Position numbers and translations under genes: made by a program. Source: Poseidonia sp. (GTDB taxonomy: Archaea > Thermoplasmatota > Poseidoniia > Poseidoniales > Poseidoniaceae). Taken from it: DNA of 28,323 bases. The notes under the pieces were generated by a model that worked only from the letters and a program-made list of their open reading frames with translations, did no database searches and had not been told where the DNA came from. How positions within the stretch are numbered: position 1 is the first letter of the stretch; the number at the start of each line of letters is the position of its first letter. Below, piece by piece: positions 4,813 to 14,799 of this stretch. The DNA lies in contig DASCRS010000036.1 in the NCBI GenBank assembly GCA_034402455.1, positions 1 through 28,323 of the forward strand, written 5' to 3'.

Positions 4813-5196
4813 ATGAGCAAAAACATCGGCATAGTCTGTGGGTCCTTCCATCGTGAAGAAGTAGAGAGGATGCTTGGATGGGCGAGTGAAGAAGCTGCTG
4901 AGAACAACATGAAGATCACTCAAGTTGTATGGGTTCCCGGTTCAATGGAAGTCCCACTTGCACTTGACCGCATCCTCGAATCTTGCGATGCAGCCGCCTG
5001 TTTAGGAATCATTGAGAAAGGTGAAACACAACACGGGCTCGCTATGGGGCAAGCTGTCATCAAAACCATCCTTGAACTACAGTTAAAACACAACAAACCC
5101 ATTGGTTTGGGAATCATCGGACCAGGTGCTGAACCTCATCACATTGAACCACGCCTTGAACCTCATGCAAGAGCAGCAGTGTTGGCTCTTATTTGA
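4813..5196 (+). CDS. ribH: 6,7-dimethyl-8-ribityllumazine synthase
   Basis: VPGSMEVP, CLGIIEKGETQH and KPIGLGIIGPG. GAGGTGG ribosome-binding site at 4800-4806. Confidence 0.93.
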   Translation: MSKNIGIVCGSFHREEVERMLGWASEEAAENNMKITQVVWVPGSMEVPLALDRILESCDAAACLGIIEKGETQHGLAMGQAVIKTILELQLKHNKPIGLGIIGPGAEPHHIEPRLEPHARAAVLALI

Positions 5197-5210
5197 GCGA
5201 TGAAATATTT

Positions 5211-5870
5211 CTAAGGGCTTCGTCTTCGGATTTCATCTGAGAAGAAATTCATGACTTTGCTTTCAACACGCTGAATTTGCGCTGAAAGTGTAGATTTGGA
5301 AACACCCAAAAGTTCAGCAAGTGTGGTGAGGGTGATCTTTCTTTGAGGGTCGTAAAATCCCTCTCTAATCGCAATATCATAGACTTGACGTTGTCGTTCT
5401 GTCAACAACCGGCTCGAGGTGCTTCGAGTGGACACTAATCGGTGTGGAATATTTTCGTGCTTAAATTCTTCAATGAGTTTTCTCATTTTGTGTCTATCGC
5501 ATTCAATCACCCAATCAACCCATCCATCACGAATTTCAAATGGGGTTCTTGGAATGACGTGCAATTGCAACAAAGGTTTGAGGAAACCCCCTCCTCCAGC
5601 ATTAATAGTTACATGATAGCGATTGCTTTCAACCATTTCAAAGTCTGCTACTCCAAGGTGAGTCATGATGGTGGTCGACAAATCTTCGGTTGAAGAAATG
5701 ATACCTGATCCTTGACCTTTGGCCAAGGCCATGTGTTCGTCTATTCGAATAATAGAAGAAGGATGGCTTCTGGAAACATCGCCAGCCCAATGTCCGTTGG
5801 GTAAACGTACTTCAATTCTCATTTGGTGCGTTGTTTTGTTCTCTTCTCGTGGTTGTGACTTTATCGCCAT
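5211..5870 (-). CDS. HTH_10 (bacterio-opsin activator Bat / DmsR / NarO-type HTH) transcriptional regulator
   Basis: C-terminal LTERQRQVYDIAIREGFYDPQRKITLTTLAELLGVSKSTLSAQIQRVESKV is the HTH_10 signature. Confidence 0.9.
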   Translation of the reverse strand: MAIKSQPREENKTTHQMRIEVRLPNGHWAGDVSRSHPSSIIRIDEHMALAKGQGSGIISSTEDLSTTIMTHLGVADFEMVESNRYHVTINAGGGGFLKPLLQLHVIPRTPFEIRDGWVDWVIECDRHKMRKLIEEFKHENIPHRLVSTRSTSSRLLTERQRQVYDIAIREGFYDPQRKITLTTLAELLGVSKSTLSAQIQRVESKVMNFFSDEIRRRSP

Positions 5871-5933
5871 GCTAAATCTCCCAAAACCCTCAACTCAATA
5901 CAGTGGAGTGACAATTGTTCAAAAACAGTCGTC

Positions 5934-5975
5934 ATAAATAGCATTTGGGCGAACATCTCTTTACGAACATGTTCG
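5934..5975 (-). promoter_or_regulatory. Promoter of the HTH_10 gene: TATA-like element plus two CGAACAT boxes, one a perfect palindrome
   Basis: CGAACATCT at 5950-5958 and the 14-bp palindrome ACGAACATGTTCGT at 5963-5976. The minus strand reads CTATTTAT at 5941-5934. Confidence 0.75.
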
Positions 5976-5984
5976 TGCTGCTCA

Positions 5985-6599
5985 TTAGTCATCCATTGAT
6001 GAGTTCATTTGTTCCATGGTGATGATGAAAATAGCCGCAAAACCTACTCCCAAAAGGATGGTTGCGATCTCTCCTGAAGTGAATCCATCCGGTCCATCAA
6101 CAATAACCGCCTTTTTTGATGTGGTTATGCTTGTCGTGTCTTTCGTCCAGTGGTCACCACTTCCAGCTATACCATCGCCATTCACAGCATTACCGTATGT
6201 TGTGAAGGTTACAACAGTACCTTTGGAAGGTGCGTTCCATTGAACCGTCCAAGTCCGCTCATCGTTTCCTTCAGAGGTATGTGTTGCCTCTCCATCAAGT
6301 ATTTGCGTGAATATGTCCATTGAACCAAGGGTTCCAGTTGAAGCCCGAAGATTGAATCCTCCAGTGTTCAATCCGCTCGATTCTGGACCAGTGAGATTCA
6401 CATAAACAGTGTATGATTCACCGTGAGTCCAATTGAGGGGAACGCCTTCCACTGTCAGAGCAGCCTCATCTGAAATAGCGCCATCTCCATGACATGTACA
6501 TCCTGAATTAACACCATTTATTCCACTACTATAGCCGTTTGATAGGGGTGCTATGAATATCAATAGAAATGCGCAACTTACTCCAATGAGGTACCTCAT
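5985..6599 (-). CDS. Secreted, C-terminally membrane-anchored choice-of-anchor V / Reeler-like protein with a CxCH motif
   Basis: Signal peptide, SGCTCHG, GGFNL, THT, WTVQWNAP, GNAVNGDG and a C-terminal TM helix. Clearly paralogous to the Cox1 N-terminal domain. Confidence 0.8.
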   Translation of the reverse strand: MRYLIGVSCAFLLIFIAPLSNGYSSGINGVNSGCTCHGDGAISDEAALTVEGVPLNWTHGESYTVYVNLTGPESSGLNTGGFNLRASTGTLGSMDIFTQILDGEATHTSEGNDERTWTVQWNAPSKGTVVTFTTYGNAVNGDGIAGSGDHWTKDTTSITTSKKAVIVDGPDGFTSGEIATILLGVGFAAIFIITMEQMNSSMDD

Positions 6600-6636
6600 G
6601 GTGGTGCCTTAACCTTCTATATCACAAAGGTTAGAA

Positions 6637-6656
6637 CGAACATGTAAGCCCAACAT
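6637..6656 (-). promoter_or_regulatory. CGAACATGT-N7-ACAT box upstream of the CxCH protein
   Basis: CGAACATGT at 6637-6645, 38 bp from the ATG at 6599. Second ACAT at 6653-6656. Confidence 0.75.
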
Positions 6657-6668
6657 CTCAGATGCCTT

Positions 6669-7226
6669 TTATCGCAAAAATGGGTATTGCTCAACAATTC
6701 GAATACGACTCCACCACGAACCGAGCCCCCATGTGTCTCCACAGCGCATGTTCGCCATGCCAAGGCAGAGGATGGCATAGATTAGGTGATGATCGAAAAA
6801 AGGATTGTGTTCCTGTGGTATCGCAGATAACCAAATCATGAACAACATGAATGCACCAGAATAACCGCCAATCTGTGTACCCATTCCTGTGATGAATGCT
6901 AAGCCTACCATAAGTAGGCCAATCATGAAAAGCCATTCAACAGTAACACTGGTAGAAAGGCTTTGGAACCAATCTGCAAAAGGCCCTTGAGTGCTGTATT
7001 TGAGAAAACCTTGGGTTGGGTGACCACCGTTCACCCAGGCCTCCTCGCATCCAAATTTAGCTGATCCACCAACATTGCATGTAGAATCCCCTAGGCCAAA
7101 CGTTCGGTCCAAAAATGGCCATAAAAATACACAGCCCATTGCAATTCGAATCAGTGACCAATATCGCTCTTGAAGGAAATTAAACATGGTTGTTTCCTGT
7201 TCCGATTCTGCTTGAATTGGCGACAT
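6669..7226 (-). CDS. DoxX / DoxD-like membrane protein
   Basis: LIRIAMGCVFLWPFLDRTFGLG, WVNGGHPTQGFL, EWLFMIGLLMVGLA, HNPFFDHH and GDTWGLG. Start at 7226 has GGAG 7 nt upstream. Alternative start at 7187. Confidence 0.8.
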   Translation of the reverse strand: MSPIQAESEQETTMFNFLQERYWSLIRIAMGCVFLWPFLDRTFGLGDSTCNVGGSAKFGCEEAWVNGGHPTQGFLKYSTQGPFADWFQSLSTSVTVEWLFMIGLLMVGLAFITGMGTQIGGYSGAFMLFMIWLSAIPQEHNPFFDHHLIYAILCLGMANMRCGDTWGLGSWWSRIRIVEQYPFLR

Positions 7227-7275
7227 TAGGCATCTCCATATGGCGCATATGGAGGATATGTAGAGTATCCTACGC

Positions 7276-7295
7276 CGAACATGTCCCACTTACAT
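7276..7295 (-). promoter_or_regulatory. CGAACATGT-N7-ACAT box upstream of the DoxX gene
   Basis: CGAACATGTCCCACTTACA matches the 14675 site at 18 of 19 positions. It overlaps only a spurious ORF extension. Confidence 0.75.
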
Positions 7296-7311
7296 CAGTT
7301 TCGTAGACATT

Positions 7312-7842
7312 CTAACTACCCTCTGACATATTCCCCGCAGTTGCACCTGCCTTGGGTTGAACAGAAAAAACACCGCTCTCAGTATTGGAGGTTTTTCCAC
7401 AAAAAATCGCACAGTCAACAATCACTGAACCAGCACCAGGGATGTCAATTTGACACATTCCAGTACTCGAAAAGGCATACTCTCCCGGTGCGGGTGCGGT
7501 AAAGACCACACTGCTAGGGTGAGTCAAATCAAATGAATATGAGAGATTCAAATCAGGTACAGTGAGTGAATCAGCGATGAAGTGCTGTTCGTCGTATTTC
7601 CTAAAATGGAGACGTACACATTCATCTTCCTCAAATTCAATTGATGCGGTTTCAAACGTCATGTCGTAATTGACACAACCGTCATCAATCATCGTTTGAT
7701 CTTTGCACTCCTCCAAGAAGGAGCCCACCTCTTCATCACAAATGCTGGTTGACTCAGTGAACATCAGATTCGATGAAAATGATATCAGAACCATAATGGC
7801 ACAAATCAAATGCCCTTTGGCAATTTTCCAATCATTCTCCAT
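7312..7842 (-). CDS. Membrane-anchored cupredoxin-like protein with a degenerate copper site
   Basis: N-terminal hydrophobic helix, then SLTVPDLNLSYSF..VVFTAPAPGEYAFSSTGMC, a cupredoxin-type core lacking the usual first Cys, His and Met. Start overlaps the nirK stop (7842, or 7848). Confidence 0.65.
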   Translation of the reverse strand: MENDWKIAKGHLICAIMVLISFSSNLMFTESTSICDEEVGSFLEECKDQTMIDDGCVNYDMTFETASIEFEEDECVRLHFRKYDEQHFIADSLTVPDLNLSYSFDLTHPSSVVFTAPAPGEYAFSSTGMCQIDIPGAGSVIVDCAIFCGKTSNTESGVFSVQPKAGATAGNMSEGS

Positions 7843-9253
7843 CTTCATCGTAAACGGTGGTGTTTTCCGCACCAGTCACAGAAATAATGCCTATGGCTCC
7901 TTTGTGGAAGGCACGTGTAAGGGCGTGGTCAACCAAGATGTAGTTCGCAGGAACTTCAAAGACAAGGTCAACAATAACAGCTCCACCTGGGGCAACTATA
8001 ACGGTTTGAACGCTTTCCAATGGAGCACTTTCGGTGCTTGCTAGATTGTAGGCTCGGTCGAAAATCTCACCAATGACGTGGAATGATGAAATGGTATTTG
8101 GACCTCCAACTCCGAAATAAATCCTCATTGATTCTCCGACATTTGCTTTGATGGTATCATCTCCAGTGAAGGTTGCAAATTTGCCATTGAACACGACGTA
8201 GGTTGGGCGTTCGTCAAAGAGCGCATCAACATCCATTTCTTGATGACCTTCGGTGCCAGGGCGCCATTTTGTGTACAAATCGCCCTGCATGACGTAAATT
8301 TCTTTGTCGACTTCCGGCAGTGGAACTTCGGGTTCAATGTAGATCATTCCGTACATGCCTTTGCTGATGTGAGTTGGGATGTCAGGTGTCGCGCAGTGGT
8401 ACACATAGAGTCCAGAATGCATGGCAAGGAAGGAGAATGATGTCGATTCTCCTGGAGCGGTCGTCGTTGCTTCAGCTCCGCCTCCTTGTCCAGTTACAGC
8501 ATGGAAATCCACGTTGTGATGCATCATGCTTTCAGCACGATTGCTGAAATGAACAATTACAGTATCGTTAATTCGTGCTCGGAACATTGGCCCTGGTACG
8601 GTTGCGTTGTACGTCCAATATGTGAAGGTCGTACCAGGTTCAAGCTCTGCAGTGACCTCAACAGCCTCAAGATAGATGTGAACCGTGGTTGATGTGTTGC
8701 GCCCTGTTGGTCCAGGAATATCGTAAGGGTCCTTGGCGATATTGTCAACATCGACGGTCAATGCTGGGCCGATGTTTTCAATTAGCGTTGTACTTGACTG
8801 CCCAGAACCAACAATGAGCGTTCCGACCATTCCACCAGCACGGTGCCCTGCAATGCTACAAAAGTATGCAAATTGGCCCTGAGTATCAGCAACAAAGGTG
8901 ACAGAATCTTCAGATCCAGATTCAGTCAATTGTTTTGTCGCAACATCATAACCTTCTACGGAAATATCGTGAAGATTCATTTCACCCATTTCCAAGGTTA
9001 TGGTCACACGATCACCGGTTTGTACCGATAGTTCGGGGTTGACCAGGCCGTCGATGGAACCACCAACACCGATGTAGGACATTTCCTTGCCTTTGAGTGT
9101 GAATTCAACGTCATTGTACATGACTACGCATTTACCATCAACCAGCTCTGTATCCTTGCCACAGGTTGTCGTCGTTTCTTCGTCTCCCAAACAGCCAGAG
9201 AACCCAGCAGTTATCATCACAAGTATCATTATCATTACATTTATTTTTCTCAT
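7832..9253 (-). CDS. nirK: Copper-containing nitrite reductase, lipoprotein, with an extra N-terminal type-1 cupredoxin domain
   Basis: HNVDFH, YVYHC..PTH..KGMYG, SSFHVIGEIFD and LVDH give all T1/T2 Cu ligands plus the catalytic Asp and His. The N-domain has LHD..YFCSIAGHRAGGM. Lipobox-like FSGC. GAGGTGG site before the ATG at 9253. Confidence 0.93.
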   Translation of the reverse strand: MRKINVMIMILVMITAGFSGCLGDEETTTTCGKDTELVDGKCVVMYNDVEFTLKGKEMSYIGVGGSIDGLVNPELSVQTGDRVTITLEMGEMNLHDISVEGYDVATKQLTESGSEDSVTFVADTQGQFAYFCSIAGHRAGGMVGTLIVGSGQSSTTLIENIGPALTVDVDNIAKDPYDIPGPTGRNTSTTVHIYLEAVEVTAELEPGTTFTYWTYNATVPGPMFRARINDTVIVHFSNRAESMMHHNVDFHAVTGQGGGAEATTTAPGESTSFSFLAMHSGLYVYHCATPDIPTHISKGMYGMIYIEPEVPLPEVDKEIYVMQGDLYTKWRPGTEGHQEMDVDALFDERPTYVVFNGKFATFTGDDTIKANVGESMRIYFGVGGPNTISSFHVIGEIFDRAYNLASTESAPLESVQTVIVAPGGAVIVDLVFEVPANYILVDHALTRAFHKGAIGIISVTGAENTTVYDEDGE

Positions 9254-9297
9254 CGTAATACCACCTCTAGTGGTTGTTTCGTGGTCTGTGTTGGGTA

Positions 9298-9324
9298 TTA
9301 TAGCCCCGGCCACGAACATATTAG
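9298..9324 (-). promoter_or_regulatory. nirK promoter: CGAACATATTAG box plus TATA-like CTATAA
   Basis: Box at 9313-9324. Minus-strand CTATAA at 9303-9298, the same box-to-TATA spacing as at cox3 and the CBS gene. Confidence 0.7.
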
Positions 9325-9342
9325 GCGGAGGTGTACGATTCC

Positions 9343-11514
9343 TCACTCGCCCTCTTGGGCGAACGGGTGACCAATAGAATGGTCAAAATTATGAGGTGGT
9401 GGAGGGGATGAAACTGTCCATTCAAGGGTTGACCCATTCCATGGGTTTGGCCCTGCGATCTCACCGTGTTTCATACTGCGCCAGAAGTTGTAAAAGAACA
9501 ACAATTGCCCAGCAAAGACCACAAAACCACCAATGGTAGCAATAAGATGAGCGACTTCCCAGCCAGCTGATTCTTGATAGAAATATATTCTTCGGGGCAT
9601 GTCAGTCAGACCAAACAAGGGAATCCATGTGAGGTTAATTCCAATAAATGTAATCCAGAAATGGTACATTCCCAATTTCTGGTCCATCATTCGACCGAAC
9701 ATCTTCGGGTACCAATAGTAAATTCCACCCAAAGTCATGACTGCAACGGCACCCAGCGTATAGTGGAAATGCGCAACTAGATAATAGGAGCCTCTCAAAT
9801 TGACATCCATGGCGACACTTGAGAGGTAGACACCAGTAATACCTCCAACAAGGAAAATACCGATGGCTCCGGTCACGAAGACAAGAGGAAGTTTTTTCCA
9901 ATCTGGCTTTGAGCGATAAAAAGTTGCTAGCAAGGAGAGATAAATCAAACCGAATGGAACGCTAACAAGTTCCGTTCCAATGGTTTCAATTTTCCTGAAT
10001 GTAGGATTGATTCCAGTGATGAACATATGGTGTGCCCATACCAATACCGATATGATTGAGGCAACAACCAAGGAATAAATGATGATTTTTCGTCCGTAAA
10101 GTGAACGACGGACCGTGTTGGGGATAATTTCCATGGCCATTCCCAATCCTGGTAGGAGGACAATGTAGACCTCGGGATGTCCGAAGAACCAGAAAATATG
10201 CAACCACCATGTTGTTCCATCGATGCTTGGGTCAAAGAACATGGTTCCAAAGACTCGGTCACCAACAAGCATGAGCACCGCTGCCATGAGTGCAGGGAAC
10301 ACCGCGAGCATCAAAATGACGGTAAAAAGAATGTTCCATGTGAACATGGGCATCTTCATCAATGGCATTCCAGGTGTTTTCATTTGCAAGATTGTGACAA
10401 GGAAATTGACCGTGCTAAACGTGACAGAAAGAATCAACAAAACCAGCCCAGCACCCGCCAGACTTATTCCAGCACCAGGGCTGTATTCTATGCTCGTCAA
10501 GGGGCTATAGAACGTCCAACCAGCATCCGCAGCGCCACCAAAGAAGAATCCACTTGCGGCAACGAGGCCGCCAAAGAGAATCATCCAAAATGACATTGCA
10601 TTGAGACGTGGGAAGGCCATGTCCTTGGCTCCAATTTGAAGAGGGACAATGTAATTTGCAAAAGCAAAGGACATTGGAGATACGGCGAACAGAACCATAA
10701 CGGCACCGTGCATGGTGACCGCTTCGTTGAACAACCCTCCAGTCATGAAATCATTATCCGGTACGATCAATTGGATTCGGATGAGCAAAGAGAGCGCAAG
10801 TCCGATAATGGTGAACAAGAGTGTGGTCCAAAGGTAGAGCATTCCGATGTCTTTGTGATTGGTCGTTGTCAACCAATGCATGACTGTTTTTTTGTCCACT
10901 GCTGGGTTTCTGACCATAAGTACAACCACTGCTGCAACCAAGCCAAGGATGGTCAAAACAATGAGCCACCAAGCAAGATTTGTGAAATCAATGATTGGTC
11001 CGCCGTCGGAATTTAACCCTTCTACCAAGATTTCTTGGCTTGACCAAAGGTCTCCAGCAGAATTCAAACCGTCTCCGTCAACGGCGTTGCCGAATACTTT
11101 GAACGAAATGTCGTCGGTGTCATCAAGAGGAGCATTCCATTGAACTGTCCACTCTCTTACATCGTTCCCCTCAAGTGTATGAGTCATCTCAATTCCCTTA
11201 TTTGGGCCATCAATCACTCGCGTGTGGTTGTCAAGCGAAACAAATTCGCCCCCATCAGCATGCAGGTTGAATCCACCAGAGTTTGCTCCGCTCGCTTCAG
11301 GACCCCCAGTGATGTTGATGGTGAGTTCGTAGCTTTCGGAGCCGTTGTAAACGTCTGGTAATCCTGTGATGGTTACTGTCACATCGTTGGATGCACTTCC
11401 TCCTCCGTGGCATGTACATCCACTGTCGACATTAGCGATTCCGTTGGAAACACCTTCCATCGTAGGGGCAAATGCAATCAAAACAAGAATTGCCATTGCG
11501 AGTAAACGCTTCAT
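9343..11514 (-). CDS. coxA: Heme-copper oxidase subunit I (A1-like) with a fused N-terminal extracellular CxCH domain
   Basis: TMHG, KDMAFPRLN, GWTFYSPL, WFFGHPEVY, WAHH, AHFHY and MPRR. Signal peptide, about 160-aa domain and an extra TM helix precede the core. ATGA overlap with cox2; GGAGGTGG site upstream. Confidence 0.95.
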   Translation of the reverse strand: MKRLLAMAILVLIAFAPTMEGVSNGIANVDSGCTCHGGGSASNDVTVTITGLPDVYNGSESYELTINITGGPEASGANSGGFNLHADGGEFVSLDNHTRVIDGPNKGIEMTHTLEGNDVREWTVQWNAPLDDTDDISFKVFGNAVDGDGLNSAGDLWSSQEILVEGLNSDGGPIIDFTNLAWWLIVLTILGLVAAVVVLMVRNPAVDKKTVMHWLTTTNHKDIGMLYLWTTLLFTIIGLALSLLIRIQLIVPDNDFMTGGLFNEAVTMHGAVMVLFAVSPMSFAFANYIVPLQIGAKDMAFPRLNAMSFWMILFGGLVAASGFFFGGAADAGWTFYSPLTSIEYSPGAGISLAGAGLVLLILSVTFSTVNFLVTILQMKTPGMPLMKMPMFTWNILFTVILMLAVFPALMAAVLMLVGDRVFGTMFFDPSIDGTTWWLHIFWFFGHPEVYIVLLPGLGMAMEIIPNTVRRSLYGRKIIIYSLVVASIISVLVWAHHMFITGINPTFRKIETIGTELVSVPFGLIYLSLLATFYRSKPDWKKLPLVFVTGAIGIFLVGGITGVYLSSVAMDVNLRGSYYLVAHFHYTLGAVAVMTLGGIYYWYPKMFGRMMDQKLGMYHFWITFIGINLTWIPLFGLTDMPRRIYFYQESAGWEVAHLIATIGGFVVFAGQLLFFYNFWRSMKHGEIAGPNPWNGSTLEWTVSSPPPPHNFDHSIGHPFAQEGE

Positions 11515-12245
11515 TGTGCACCACCTCCAGAATACCATTGGTCAAAATCGGATTTCTCCATAACTTCGAGTTCACCAATCATGACGGCATGGTCTGCCCC
11601 ACACAATTCATAACAACGAATTGGATAAGTTCCCGTTTCTTCAGCCAAAATCCATCCTATGTTTGGACGACTTGGGAGTGCATCAACCTTAATTCGGTGT
11701 TCTGGCAAGGCGAAGGAATGAAACACATCTCCGCCAATGACTTCGAACACGACTGGGGTGTCAACCGGGATTCGTAATGGTTCATCGGTGGCACTGGTGT
11801 AATTGATTCCATTGGGGTATTCGTATTCCCAATAATACTGCCATCCCGTGACTTGCACGGTGAACGATTCCTCCTCAAGTTCTGGTGTCTCAAAAAATTT
11901 GATTGAATCGAAAGTAACTGAAGAAAGGACGAGAAGAAATACAGTAATGATTACTGTAAGGCTCCATGAAAGTTTGACATTTCCTCGTTCAATAGGCATT
12001 TGTCCCAAGAAAGGAGCATCCGAAGGTTCGACTTCCACTTCAGTCGTTACCAACCAAAGGAAGAAACCGTAGACAGTAACGGCTACAATACATCCTAATG
12101 TCCAGTAAATCAAGAAGAGGTTGTCGTATACCTTGGCGTGTTCTCCAGTTCCAGGTTCTTGGAACCATTTGATGATTGAGCCAAAGGTCAGCATAAGAAT
12201 AACAATCGAGAAGAAAATGAGTCCAAATGCCCGTTTATTCTGCAT
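11511..12245 (-). CDS. coxB: Heme-copper oxidase subunit II, CuA type, no cytochrome c domain
   Basis: Two TM helices, GWQYYWEYEY, DVFHSF and CYELCGADHAVM. GGAGGT site and ATGA overlap with cox3. Confidence 0.95.
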   Translation of the reverse strand: MQNKRAFGLIFFSIVILMLTFGSIIKWFQEPGTGEHAKVYDNLFLIYWTLGCIVAVTVYGFFLWLVTTEVEVEPSDAPFLGQMPIERGNVKLSWSLTVIITVFLLVLSSVTFDSIKFFETPELEEESFTVQVTGWQYYWEYEYPNGINYTSATDEPLRIPVDTPVVFEVIGGDVFHSFALPEHRIKVDALPSRPNIGWILAEETGTYPIRCYELCGADHAVMIGELEVMEKSDFDQWYSGGGAQ

Positions 12246-13057
12246 CAGATAACCTCCACATATACAATCAAGAACAGCACCATCCAAACCACATCAACAA
12301 AGTGCCAATACCATACAATGGCTTGGAATGAATCCCTTCTTCCGTTGTCATAGTATCCTTTTTTGTGTAAGAAAGCGACCCCCCCTAAGGCAATGATTCC
12401 AACCAATACATGGAGTCCATGCAATCCTGTTAAGGCAAAGAAAGCGGTGCCATAAGGATGGTCTTTCCATGTGAACCCTGTATGCATATATTCATACAAT
12501 TGAATAGCCAAAAAGAGAGCACCAAAAGCGATGGTAATGTACAGATTCTTTCGAGAACGAACCAGTGAACCCCGGTCATGGGCGTGAAGAGAAAGGTGGG
12601 CTATGATTCCCGAAGAAAGCAATAATGCAGTGTTGAACATCACCAGCATCATGTTGTGGTGAATCTCTGCTGGTGGCCATGAAGATGAGGCGATTGCTCC
12701 ATCCCAAGAAACAGTGTGCCATTTCGCCCAAAACCAAAATGCAAAGAATCCCGCAAAAACAATGACTTCTGTGAGGATAATCCATACCATTGCCCACGAA
12801 GCATGGCCCATTTTGTGGGTTGAAATCTCACGAAATTGCCAGAGATCAACATCTTCTCTAACCCAAGAGAATATCGACCACACCAACATTGGAATTGCAA
12901 GGAAAGCGATGGGCCATATGAGTAAAGAAGCAAGTGTTAAGGTTACTGAAAGTGAAAAGATTAGAGGTACCAAACTGGAATGAACTTCTCCAGGTTCTCC
13001 GTGAGCATCCATGTTGATTTTCCAAAGCGATTCATTCGGTAAGTGTTCACCATCCAT
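12245..13057 (-). CDS. coxC: Heme-copper oxidase subunit III
   Basis: LTEVIVFAGFF, WPP, NTALLLSSG, FFALTGLHGLHV and YWHFVDVVW. Start 13057 is supported by promoter geometry. Confidence 0.93.
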   Translation of the reverse strand: MDGEHLPNESLWKINMDAHGEPGEVHSSLVPLIFSLSVTLTLASLLIWPIAFLAIPMLVWSIFSWVREDVDLWQFREISTHKMGHASWAMVWIILTEVIVFAGFFAFWFWAKWHTVSWDGAIASSSWPPAEIHHNMMLVMFNTALLLSSGIIAHLSLHAHDRGSLVRSRKNLYITIAFGALFLAIQLYEYMHTGFTWKDHPYGTAFFALTGLHGLHVLVGIIALGGVAFLHKKGYYDNGRRDSFQAIVWYWHFVDVVWMVLFLIVYVEVI

Positions 13058-13079
13058 GGATATTCCAGGGGAGAGAAGA

Positions 13080-13115
13080 ATATACATTGTAACACGAACA
13101 TGTAGGGGGGACATG
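13080..13115 (-). promoter_or_regulatory. cox operon promoter: CGAACATGT-N7-ACATG box plus TATA-like GTATAT
   Basis: Box at 13095-13103, 38 bp from the ATG at 13057. Second ACATG at 13111-13115. Minus-strand GTATAT at 13085-13080. Confidence 0.75.
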
Positions 13116-13143
13116 CCTTACCAGTGTTGGAGTTCCAAGATTC

Positions 13144-13737
13144 ATGAGGGCTGATACTTCAATTGTACTAAGCCTCTTGATTTTAGGAGCATTTCTTTCG
13201 CTTTCCCCACTAATCTTATTTGGCGACTCAGAGCAATTGAATACGGTCACACGAGACGATTTATCCGTTGAACAAATTTCATCATTAAACAATGGGACCT
13301 TCGCTAAAAGTCTCAAAGATAATGATGCCATCATCATTACATCGGCGATTATTGTCAAAGATTCCTTGTTCATCGCAGGTGAATTTTCTGGAGAAATTAC
13401 CATTGGAAATCAATCCTATCTCAGCCAAGGATCTTCGGATCTAATCATGGCAAGGCTTGCACCAAATGGAACATGGATTTGGGTTGAGGTTCTTGGGGGA
13501 GCTGGTAATGACCGTGACGTAACATTTGAGTACAAAAATGAACAATTATTCGTAAAGGGCTCAATTTTTGGTGAAATCAATACTACATCGGGTTATACGG
13601 TAGGCAGTGGAGAAAAAAATGGCCATGAAAGGATTATTGGAGAAATTTCAGTTGAAAACGGTACCTGGAAGTTGCTTACAGTTGACCCGTTTGGAGACCT
13701 AAGTGCGAACCCCTCTCTATGGTGCGGATGGCGATGA
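13144..13737 (+). CDS. Hypothetical membrane-anchored or secreted beta-rich protein
   Basis: N-terminal TM or signal helix. IAGEFSGEITIG..DLIMARLAPNGTWIWVEVLGGAGND resembles archaeal surface beta-propeller repeats. Confidence 0.7.
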   Translation: MRADTSIVLSLLILGAFLSLSPLILFGDSEQLNTVTRDDLSVEQISSLNNGTFAKSLKDNDAIIITSAIIVKDSLFIAGEFSGEITIGNQSYLSQGSSDLIMARLAPNGTWIWVEVLGGAGNDRDVTFEYKNEQLFVKGSIFGEINTTSGYTVGSGEKNGHERIIGEISVENGTWKLLTVDPFGDLSANPSLWCGWR

Positions 13738-13744
13738 TGGGCCC

Positions 13745-14167
13745 TTAGATGTGATCTAGAAGAGCCTCATTGTGAACGAAAGACCATCCATATGCATGGA
13801 AGTCCTTTTTGTCAATTTCTTCAATTTCGCAGCCAAGATGCGACCAAATCAATTCGATGTCGCCTCTTACTTCCATTCGATAAGAGATAATGTCCATCCA
13901 TTTTTTCTTTTGTGTAGTGTCCATCAGCAATATAACTCCGAGGTCTTCGTTAATCTCTTCAAGGGTTGAATGGATTGTTTTTCCTTTGATTTTCAATCCA
14001 TTCTTTGCTGGATCAACGATGAAATATTCCCAATTATCTTTCTCCAATTTTGTGATGATTGACAACCAAGAGTGGTGGTCAATGTTTGAATCGCCAAGAA
14101 GGGCAATTTGCTTCAAACTACGAGCATATTCAATGATCTCATTCGGAAGAAGGTGTTGGTGGGCCAT
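13745..14167 (-). CDS. Divergent CoA-binding (YccU-like) Rossmann domain protein
   Basis: IALLGDS, FIVDP, KGKTIHSTLEEI, IWSHLG and FVHN follow the YccU pattern loosely. Confidence 0.55.
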   Translation of the reverse strand: MAHQHLLPNEIIEYARSLKQIALLGDSNIDHHSWLSIITKLEKDNWEYFIVDPAKNGLKIKGKTIHSTLEEINEDLGVILLMDTTQKKKWMDIISYRMEVRGDIELIWSHLGCEIEEIDKKDFHAYGWSFVHNEALLDHI

Positions 14168-14217
14168 GAGGAGCGATTCTCTTTAGGAGCCTTGTATTTT
14201 TCACGAATATGTCCGTC

Positions 14218-14637
14218 TTATGGGAAATTTTTGTTTTGATTCATGTGCTCAAGAACCGATTGCAATGTGACCAAGCCCAGAATATTTCCATCTTGAATTA
14301 CTGGCAGGCGCTTTACATTGAATGCAGACATCTGCAAGTAGGCGTCATCAATCGTACACAGAGGCCCAATATGATGCAACGCTCTCAGATTAAATGAATA
14401 CAAGGGTCGTTTCCAAAAAGCCTTGATTTGAACCTCACGTTCTTCTTGTAAACGAAGCATTTCTGTTGAAGTGATTATGCTCCACGGACGATTATCTTGG
14501 TCCAAAATTACAAGAGTGCAAGTTCCAAGCTTGCCGATATAATCAGCGGCATCCAAGAAACATACATCAGATGTGATTAGAGGGGGGGAGCATGACATAA
14601 ACTCCCCAACCGTCAATTTATTGCTCAACCTTGGCAT
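14218..14637 (-). CDS. CBS-pair protein
   Basis: VGEFMS..PP, ..WSIITSTEML and AYLQMSAFNVKRLPVIQDGNILGLVTLQSVL form two CBS motifs. Confidence 0.85.
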   Translation of the reverse strand: MPRLSNKLTVGEFMSCSPPLITSDVCFLDAADYIGKLGTCTLVILDQDNRPWSIITSTEMLRLQEEREVQIKAFWKRPLYSFNLRALHHIGPLCTIDDAYLQMSAFNVKRLPVIQDGNILGLVTLQSVLEHMNQNKNFP

Positions 14638-14659
14638 GGCGTGTGAAATTAAACCTAAG

Positions 14660-14693
14660 ATATAGACTTGAAAGCGAACATGTCCAACTTACA
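14660..14693 (-). promoter_or_regulatory. CBS gene promoter: CGAACATGT-N7-ACA box plus TATA-like CTATAT
   Basis: Box at 14675-14683, 38 bp from the ATG at 14637. Minus-strand CTATAT at 14665-14660. Confidence 0.75.
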
Positions 14694-14799
14694 AGGCTTG
14701 TTCTCTTGAGAATTAGTTCAATTGACATAATTGACAAGCGGAGAGCGACGGGCGAACCTTCAAACACCCCCTCCCCCCAAACTCTAGATGGAGAATAGC

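Follow-up and report, generated by a model that had tools for sequence, protein, structure and literature searches.

In haloarchaea the genes of denitrification share a promoter motif. The nos and nor promoters of Haloferax mediterranei carry the palindrome CGAACATGTTCG and the nirK promoter carries CGAATATGTTCG; anaerobic conditions activate the nir, nor and nos promoters, and with a mutated box those of nos and nor were significantly less active (PMC10062603). The regulator which binds this motif was stated to be unidentified, with short Bat-like HTH_10 proteins as candidates, especially one encoded inside the nirK-nor cluster (PMC11218638). The subject of the present work is a gene cluster from a different phylum in which the same palindrome recurs, namely positions 5211-14693 of a 28,323-nucleotide stretch of DNA (the window; contig DASCRS010000036.1 of assembly GCA_034402455.1) from Poseidonia sp., a member of the Poseidoniales or Marine Group II. 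The cluster encodes an HTH_10 regulator, a copper nitrite reductase (NirK) and three subunits of a heme-copper oxidase (HCO). It is probably a horizontally mobile respiratory island of this order, a self-regulated micro-oxic regulon which adds a second oxidase and, in some of its versions, a nitrite reductase.

Marine Group II counts among the most abundant archaea of the plankton, and its members are regarded as simple aerobic heterotrophs. A nirK gene has been noted earlier in one bin of this group, where it was transcribed only in suboxic samples (PMC5596340). This gene, the haloarchaeal box, the HTH_10 regulators of anaerobic respiration, the three-domain NirK and the odd oxidase of the Thaumarchaeota are already known. 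In the searchable literature no paper was found on the module in Poseidoniales or on the fusion of a reeler or choice-of-anchor-V domain to a cytochrome oxidase; nor were the module's character as an island, the pairing of regulator and operator across phyla, the O2-reductase-type enzyme in the place of a nitric oxide (NO) reductase (NOR) and the alternative CuA-d1 protein found there. A sequence-only reading of the window, made before this analysis, knew of no description of the arrangement in Marine Group II; this agrees with the literature found on the module and does not hold for nirK. A transferable island of this kind would be a concrete genetic marker for Marine Group II populations adapted to oxygen-poor water or particles, and it suggests a potential origin of NO or N2O.

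Genes and promoter boxes of the island

A minus-strand run of ten genes at 5211-14693 was confirmed by the list of open reading frames and by Pfam and NCBIfam scans. All the genes named in the sequence-only reading were found at their places, the DoxX-like and YccU-like ones with the help of Atlas, and its gene list was incomplete in that it overlooked a plus-strand gene lying inside the cluster and divergent from cox3. The genes are as follows.

5211-5870, minus: HTH_10 (Bat-family) regulator, 219 amino acids (PF04967 59.5 bits, cut-off 23.1)
5985-6599, minus: membrane-anchored extracellular reeler-fold CxCH or choice-of-anchor-V protein, 204 amino acids (NF041895 82 bits, cut-off 42)
6669-7226, minus: DoxX-like membrane protein, likely start ATG 7226 (Pfam E 0.46, Atlas feature score 0.96)
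7312-7848, minus: degenerate CuA-type cupredoxin lipoprotein (PF13473 21 bits, below cut-off)
7832-9253, minus: NirK, three-domain copper nitrite reductase, lipoprotein (TIGR02376 331.4 bits, cut-off 296.3)
9343-11538, minus: cox1, accessory heme-copper oxidase subunit I (PF00115 420 bits; TIGR02891 552.9 bits, cut-off 670.75)
11511-12287, minus: cox2, oxidase subunit II, likely true start ATG 12245 (PF00116; TIGR02866 152.5 bits, cut-off 147.7)
12245-13057, minus: cox3, oxidase subunit III, start taken as ATG 13057 (PF00510 112 bits)
13144-13737, plus: secreted SBBP-like beta-propeller fragment protein, 197 amino acids (Atlas, and homologs beside cox3)
13745-14167, minus: CoA_binding_2 (YccU)-like small protein, 140 amino acids (Atlas structure match alone)
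14218-14637, minus: CBS-domain protein (PF00571)

Seven promoters of the cluster carry a box with the consensus CGAACATGTTCG, which is identical to the motif of the H. mediterranei nos and nor promoters.

5950-5975, minus: promoter of the regulator itself, with the perfect palindrome CGAACATGTTCG at 5964-5975 and the half-site AGATGTTCG at 5950-5958
6637-6648, minus: box CTTACATGTTCG, 37 nucleotides before the ATG of the reeler-like gene, with TATA-like GATATAG between
7276-7287, minus: box GGGACATGTTCG, upstream of the DoxX-like gene
9313-9324, minus: box variant CTAATATGTTCG, then TATA-like CTATAATA, 59 nucleotides before the nirK ATG
13095-13106, between divergent genes: box CCTACATGTTCG in the intergenic region of cox3 and the gene at 13144-13737, 37 nucleotides before the cox3 ATG
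14204-14215, minus: box CGGACATATTCG, 36 nucleotides before the ATG of the CoA_binding_2-like gene
14675-14686, minus: box TGGACATGTTCG, 37 nucleotides before the ATG of the CBS gene, with TATA-like CTATATC between

Exact copies of the 9-mer ACATRTTCG lie on the minus strand at 5964, 6637, 7276, 13095, 14204 and 14675, all six upstream of cluster genes, and nowhere else in the window. Counted on both strands there are seven in 9.5 kb against 0.16 expected (Poisson P = 5e-10), and the proposal of one shared upstream motif is thereby substantiated. Over the whole genome the 9-mer occurs near chance, with 27 copies found and 18.8 expected, and 7 of the 27 fall within the 9.5-kb cluster. The distance from box to ATG is 36-37 nucleotides at the CBS, CoA-binding-like, cox3 and reeler-like genes, with a TATA-like element about 10 nucleotides past the box, and this spacing at four promoters suggests leaderless transcripts. 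Longer leaders are found at the DoxX-like gene (49 nucleotides), nirK (59) and the HTH_10 gene (93). The location of the box just upstream of the B recognition element and TATA fits the usual position of an archaeal activator. No box of their own precedes cox2, cox1 and the cupredoxin-like gene, which are operonic.

The cluster was compared with 151 species-level Poseidoniales genomes. A housekeeping-type COX1, 37-42% identical to that of the window, occurs in 146 of these, and an accessory-type COX1, 67-77% identical, in 12 of the 151, with the 20 other genomes of the genus all lacking it. The core of the module is found in 11 other genomes of two families in a conserved order: the divergent secreted propeller gene, cox3-cox2-cox1, a free reeler-like gene, HTH_10 and usually then a BoxB-like gene. 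This synteny and the conservation of the box speak for the coherent module that had been proposed from the window. One slot is variable among the accessory-oxidase genomes, being filled by NirK and the degenerate cupredoxin in four and by a CuA-d1 protein in three. In genome G041 the reeler-like, HTH_10 and BoxB-like genes lie together (L041:8505-11034), and nirK with its cupredoxin gene lies behind a box on a different contig; the accessory cox3-cox2-cox1 was not found in this genome, which is 88% complete.

Across 13 related loci from the two families the box is conserved before the cox3, reeler-like, HTH_10, CoA-binding-like and nirK genes. It precedes cox3, the reeler-like gene and the regulator gene in all related loci compared, mostly as a perfect palindrome, and the copy between cox3 and the propeller gene is a perfect palindrome in most of them. 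Exact boxes precede nirK in G041 and G081, and the tandem of palindrome and half-site at the regulator promoter has the same arrangement in G100 and G108. The perfect 12-mer was counted one to three times in each of five module genomes, with nearly every copy inside the module.

The island is inserted between ribH and trxB. In G008, a genome of the same genus, ribE, ribH and trxB are adjacent, the distance of 523 bp from the riboflavin synthase gene to trxB leaving room for ribH only, and it follows that 5211-14693 is an insertion. Other genomes of the genus hold 3.4-6.8 kb of other DNA in the ribH-trxB interval (window 5196-5211 and 14693-14788), where 9.5 kb are found here, and these differing gaps mark the interval as a variable spot. 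As the genome bin is 55% complete and consists of 161 contigs, a chance juxtaposition, a mis-assembly or a contaminant contig had to be considered, in which case there would be no functional unit. This is highly improbable: the flanks match same-genus genomes with 63-96% protein identity and in the same order, both junctions are bridged at even depth by contigs from an independent sample and run, and the core order recurs in the 11 other genomes.

The regulator and its haloarchaeal counterparts

Over about 205 residues the HTH_10 regulator is 29-31% identical to regulators of haloarchaeal nirK-norB clusters (E 4e-28 and 3e-24), which were found by a translated search of plasmids and are located on haloarchaeal megaplasmids. 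In Halogeometricum borinquense and Haloferax larsenii these homologs sit within clusters of nirK, NO reductase, halocyanin and DUF2249 genes; CGAACATGTTCG lies about 45 nucleotides upstream of both regulator genes and further CGAA-N4-TTCG boxes precede genes neighbouring them. The haloarchaeal denitrification regulon, which is marked by the box CGAAYATDKTYG or CGAA-N4-TTCG and for which NarO of Haloferax volcanii and the candidate E6P09_00735 of H. mediterranei are the regulators in view, has the core palindrome in common with the island. It also resembles the island in the box before the regulator's own gene, in a full-length regulator homolog of about 215 amino acids and in having NirK and copper proteins among its members, and in both groups the regulator is a candidate for binding to the box. 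The island differs in its host, a marine planktonic aerobe of a different phylum, in the lack of nar, nor and nos, in an O2-reductase-type cox3-cox2-cox1 operon where the haloarchaeal clusters have NO reductase, and in its additional reeler-like, BoxB-like, CBS and CoA-binding-like members.

With control logic shared with haloarchaeal denitrification, the island most likely has low oxygen as its trigger, and the low-oxygen role suggested by the sequence-only reading gains indirect support from the box and from the homology of the regulator. The perfect palindrome and half-site in the regulator's own promoter make self-regulation, which had also been suggested, plausible. The pairing of a 12-bp palindrome with a short HTH_10 family in two phyla is comparative evidence on the haloarchaeal regulator described as unidentified (PMC11218638) and turns its identity into a directly testable question.

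The N-terminal part of the regulator consists of two ferredoxin-like alpha/beta units in an AlphaFold2 model (predicted local distance difference test, pLDDT, 86.8). This part contains no PAS or GAF domain and no cysteine cluster, and there is one cysteine in the whole protein; NarO has an N-terminal cysteine motif. A fold search with the model yielded no clear sensor fold in the PDB and a weak match to Thermoplasma Ta1207 alone.

Orthologs of the regulator occur in Thalassarchaeaceae only in nine genomes, which have the module or NirK. Among the Thalassarchaeaceae genomes without an ortholog, 17 of 65 still hold one or two perfect CGAACATGTTCG palindromes, and a reversed control pattern was found in 4 of 74 genomes of this family; a more distant regulator may use the palindrome there. 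In Poseidoniaceae a paralog with 50-60% identity is nearly universal, and a perfect box lies about 15-30 bp from the end of its gene, ahead of a BoxB-like gene. The product of the latter matches BoxB, the benzoyl-CoA oxygenase component B (PDB 3per, 195 bits), and in nearly all module loci a BoxB-like gene comes after HTH_10. The Poseidonia genome itself has such a unit on contig C104 (L004:326-2169), with an HTH_10 paralog of 51% identity, a double box AACATGTTCGTACGAATATGTTCG and a gene for a BoxB-like di-iron oxygenase.

These units suggest another explanation, according to which the box and HTH_10 answer a signal other than oxygen, such as an aromatic acyl-CoA, copper, or the energy or redox state sensed through the CBS and CoA-binding proteins, and oxidase and NirK merely landed alongside. 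No unit of the order is older or more widespread than HTH_10, box and BoxB-like gene, which about 64-69 of 74 Poseidoniaceae genomes lacking the oxidase possess; the modelled N-terminal domain resembles a small-molecule-binding alpha/beta tandem, and CBS and CoA_binding_2 proteins are members of the regulon. Set against this, the same box and a homologous regulator mark denitrification genes in another phylum, the promoters of which respond to anoxia, the genes and operons of the island have each acquired a box at a fixed spacing, which argues for selection and not for mere adjacency, and boxes precede nirK even on another contig. A signal of this other kind is accordingly quite improbable as the explanation of the island.

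The accessory oxidase and the nitrite reductase slot

A housekeeping operon, cox2-cox1-cox3-cox4-SCO1, is present elsewhere in the genome of this Poseidonia, divided between contigs C88 and C54, and the island oxidase is hence accessory. The notion that it might be the only oxidase of the organism was rejected on this ground, and the earlier characterization of the enzyme as atypical proved right. In its subunit II the CuA motif (H...CyelCgadHavM) is complete and a cytochrome c domain is lacking. Subunit I is composed of an N-terminal reeler-like CxCH domain, one extra transmembrane helix and the COX1 core. The core scores far above the cut-off of PF00115 and below that of TIGR02891 (CtaD_CoxA). 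Its six histidine ligands of the low-spin heme, the high-spin heme and CuB are kept in the motifs MHG, GHPEVY, HHMF and HFHY in all 12 accessory sequences and align to Mycobacterium CtaD (8hcr). The active-site tyrosine and the D-channel glutamate (GHPEVY) are likewise present in all 12, and the aspartate motif NHKDIG reads NHKEIG in one of them. The threonine and lysine of the K-channel (VPTGxK in helix VIII) are replaced in 12 of 12, which read VPFGLI or VPFALI; VPTGxK is kept in five housekeeping paralogs and in Mycobacterium CtaD.

With A-family (aa3-type) oxidases, for example those of Rhodobacter sphaeroides (1m56) and Mycobacterium (CtaD, 8hcr), the accessory enzyme thus shares subunits I-III, the CuA motif, the six histidines, GHPEVY and the aspartate of NHKDIG. 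Unlike them it has phenylalanine and isoleucine or valine for the threonine and lysine of the K-channel, an additional extracellular reeler-like domain with its transmembrane helix, and an operon without cox4 and SCO1. The nearest outside relatives, at 50-62% identity, are proteins of about 505-528 amino acids and fusions of subunits I and III labelled Nitrososphaerales, Thaumarchaeota, Caldiarchaeum, Bathyarchaeia and Dehalococcoidia, and the first 39 database relatives among the matches listed also have the K-channel replacement (VPFG(L)I or VPFALI). The oxidases of Thaumarchaeota and Aigarchaeota, which belong to these relatives and are 50-55% identical in the core, show the same loss, with PFG.I or LPFD.I for PTG.K. 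In contrast to the thaumarchaeal fusion of subunits I and III the island subunits are separate, the reeler-like fusion is specific for Poseidoniales, and the enzyme is accessory and not the sole oxidase. In a maximum-likelihood tree of subunit I the accessory clade lies inside the thaumarchaeal-type lineage, far from the housekeeping clade, and its Poseidoniaceae members are nested among Thalassarchaeaceae members. Judged by its sequence the oxidase belongs to an archaeal lineage without the canonical K-channel threonine and lysine which includes the thaumarchaeal enzyme, and the island shows that this lineage extends past the Thaumarchaeota. The oxidase of Nitrosopumilus (N. maritimus) is discussed as an intermediate between the A and B families and as an adaptation to low O2 (PMC11214002, citing Han 2011).

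All described NOR families of the HCO superfamily (cNOR, qNOR, eNOR, bNOR, sNOR, gNOR and nNOR) lack the active-site tyrosine and have altered CuB/FeB ligands (PMC11214002). Since the accessory enzyme keeps this tyrosine it is not one of them, and its assignment to a described NOR family was rejected on account of the tyrosine and of all three CuB histidines. Its predicted active site is that of an O2 reductase. In five module genomes (84-94% complete) exactly two genes of the HCO superfamily and one cytochrome b gene were found each, and a check for any NOR, as the sequence-only reading had advised, found no NorB type in them.

NirK consists of an N-terminal type-1 copper cupredoxin and the NirK core and matches the enzyme of Hyphomicrobium denitrificans (PDB 2dv6) over its full length with 417 bits. 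The role of nitrite reductase given to it in the sequence-only reading is supported, as every catalytic residue is present: all ligands of type-1 (His, Cys, His, Met) and type-2 copper (three His) as well as the catalytic aspartate and histidine align to 2dv6, in the motifs HHNVDFH, YHCATP..H..GM, SFHVIG and VDHA. Both type-1 sites and the type-2 site of the H. denitrificans enzyme are therefore found in the island NirK as well; the latter differs in being an archaeal lipoprotein, in a short cysteine-bracketed loop past the lipobox, and in the degenerate CuA-like gene which always comes next. Full-length NirK is rare, occurring in 5 of the 151 genomes, with the closest copy (84%) in the other family. 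The gene is inside the module in G000, G100 and G043 and elsewhere, behind an exact box, in G041 and G081.

The cupredoxin-like gene comes directly after nirK in all five genomes, and here its start overlaps the nirK stop. The role of an electron carrier which had been proposed for its product is not supported: compared with the CuA domain of CuA-d1, the first histidine and CxxxC are kept and the second histidine and the methionine of a CuA-type site are lost. The remaining ligand set recalls that of the Sco copper chaperones, and instead of carrying electrons the protein may serve to supply NirK with copper.

In three genomes (G121, G133 and G128) the place of NirK is taken by a lipoprotein of 600 amino acids, here called CuA-d1, in which a complete CuA-type motif (H...CxxxCxxxHxxM) is fused to a cytochrome-d1 beta-propeller (PF02239 158 bits; nearest PDB structures NirF, NirN and NirS). 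It was found in just these three of the 151 genomes, adjoining the accessory oxidase each time. With NirS (cytochrome cd1) it shares the d1-type propeller, and it has a CuA-type cupredoxin instead of the cytochrome c domain.

L028:3868-5670 (G133): CuA-d1 protein
L027:14925-16727 (G121): CuA-d1 protein
L029:5168-6976 (G128): CuA-d1 protein

NirK (window about 9140-9180), most of the cupredoxin-like proteins (L020, L021 and L022) and CuA-d1 have in common an N-terminal lipobox and, next to it, a short loop between two cysteines; the sequence of the loop is CGKDTELVDGKC in NirK and CG.GT.....C in the other two kinds of protein. This loop may be a common anchoring or maturation signal.

NirK or CuA-d1 is present in 7 of the 12 accessory-oxidase genomes and in 1 of the 139 others (Fisher P = 2e-8, a value inflated by relatedness). 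In the other five, at a completeness of 84-94%, no nitrite reductase is seen, which means that the accessory oxidase can stand alone. An association of this kind could reflect a two-step pathway from nitrite to N2O or for the disposal of NO, in which the accessory enzyme would consume or tolerate NO in place of the qNOR of the haloarchaeal nirK-norB regulon. In the haloarchaeal clusters the heme-copper gene beside nirK codes for 762-766 amino acids and is annotated as cbb3-type cytochrome c oxidase subunit I; it is read here as the NO reductase of an H. mediterranei-type nirK-nor cluster. The module genomes have only their two HCO-superfamily genes and no NorB type, the nitrite reductase slot is filled by two unrelated enzymes, which indicates a functional tie to nitrite or NO, and Thaumarchaeota with this oxidase lineage also carry NirK, so that the related enzyme works in cells with a nitrite reductase. 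O2 reductases are, furthermore, able to reduce NO slowly (PMC11214002). The accessory oxidases nevertheless keep the His-Tyr motif GHPEVY, three CuB histidines and the acidic D-channel residues, the tyrosine being lost in every described NOR family, five of the 12 genomes do without a visible nitrite reductase, and in G041, which has NirK, regulator and box, the accessory oxidase was not found. Such a pathway is considered unlikely. It would be slightly more doubtful still that the oxidase without K-channel is the physiological partner of NirK or CuA-d1, reducing NO or respiring traces of O2 amid NO. Were this the case, part of Marine Group II would carry out a partial denitrification, from nitrite to NO or N2O, where ocean water is low in oxygen, and the whole thaumarchaeal-type oxidase lineage would be an NO-compatible terminal oxidase.

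As a micro-oxic respiratory regulon the island could work as follows. Under scarcity of oxygen the HTH_10 regulator at the island end would bind the palindromic CGAACATGTTCG upstream of TATA at seven promoters, its own included, and, going by its haloarchaeal homologs, activate them. A second branch would thereby be added to the aerobic chain, formed by the accessory CuA-type heme-copper O2 reductase (cox3-cox2-cox1) and in this genome also by the three-domain copper NirK, which would make NO from nitrite. The single cytochrome b complex would deliver electrons, via copper proteins, to the CuA of the oxidase and to the N-terminal cupredoxin of NirK.

Several points weigh against the island being such a micro-oxic regulon. 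The regulator has no recognisable sensor domain for O2, NO or redox state, and A-type oxidases are usually of low affinity. The HTH_10-box-BoxB-like unit occurs in most Poseidoniaceae genomes without the island, and since a paralog and the same box stand there before a gene for an O2-dependent oxygenase the signal could be other than low oxygen. The lack of a NorB-type gene in the five module genomes leaves the fate of NO unexplained. RNA libraries from island-holding samples gave nothing for the island or its flanks, a result which is uninformative rather than negative. Finally, the nirK promoter of H. mediterranei was not significantly affected when its box was mutated (PMC10062603).

Reeler-like domain, DoxX-like protein and further genes

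The CxCH protein encoded upstream of the regulator is a free-standing paralog of the N-terminal domain of COX1. Its motif GCxCH...THT...NGDG...DxW is invariant, and in an alignment of 22 copies C34, C36, H37, H107, D149 and W151 do not vary. The AlphaFold2 model (pLDDT 87.7) is a beta-sandwich, for which Foldseek gave the reeler domain of F-spondin as best match (2zot/3coo, E 4e-6) and Reelin-domain clusters as neighbours in AFDB; NF041895 (choice-of-anchor-V) is matched with 82 and 87 bits (cut-off 42). In nearly the whole order the domain is fused via one extra transmembrane helix to the N-terminus of COX1, both housekeeping and accessory.

Window 11029-11538: reeler-like domain fused to the accessory COX1
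L035:7951-8460: reeler-like domain fused to a housekeeping COX1
L033:6344-6853: reeler-like domain fused to a housekeeping COX1

Its presence on both COX1 types makes the CxCH domain a general feature of Poseidoniales, only the free-standing copy being specific for the module, and the reeler-fold fusion to subunit I adds to the enzymology of these oxidases. A c-type heme site was rejected, as the motif is CxCH and not CxxCH in 22 of 22 copies, the fold is a beta-sandwich and the domain occurs on the housekeeping oxidase as well. The suggestion that CxCH domains serve the module as electron carriers is not supported: the fold is that of a reeler domain, the housekeeping copies show that it is not specific for the module, and no redox cofactor can be assigned to it.

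The DoxX-like protein reaches only E 0.46 at 11.6 bits with PF07681, and it matches DoxX clusters of Atlas with a feature score of 0.96 and 216 shared features. In the 13 related loci no homolog of its gene was found, which is confined to the module version of this genome; a DoxX protein as core quinol link, the quinone link of the sequence-only reading, was rejected with the gene absent from all other module versions.

Neither for this protein nor for the 140- and 197-amino acid proteins of the island was a Pfam or NCBIfam match above cut-off obtained. The rest of the window contains riboflavin genes and genes for thioredoxin reductase, a ThiF-rhodanese protein, transporters and acyl-CoA enzymes; genes for nar, nor, nos, cytochrome c or oxidase assembly are found nowhere in the 28 kb, just as had been stated before. 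The CoA_binding_2-like protein at 13745-14167 matches PF13380 clusters in structure (Atlas TM-score 0.73-0.76) and has homologs at five other module loci, and a CBS protein occurs likewise in G108 and G133. The propeller gene at 13144-13737 on the plus strand has homologs beside cox3 in all 11 other related loci, and its product resembles SBBP repeat proteins with an Atlas feature score of 0.92-0.94 and a structure TM-score of about 0.68.

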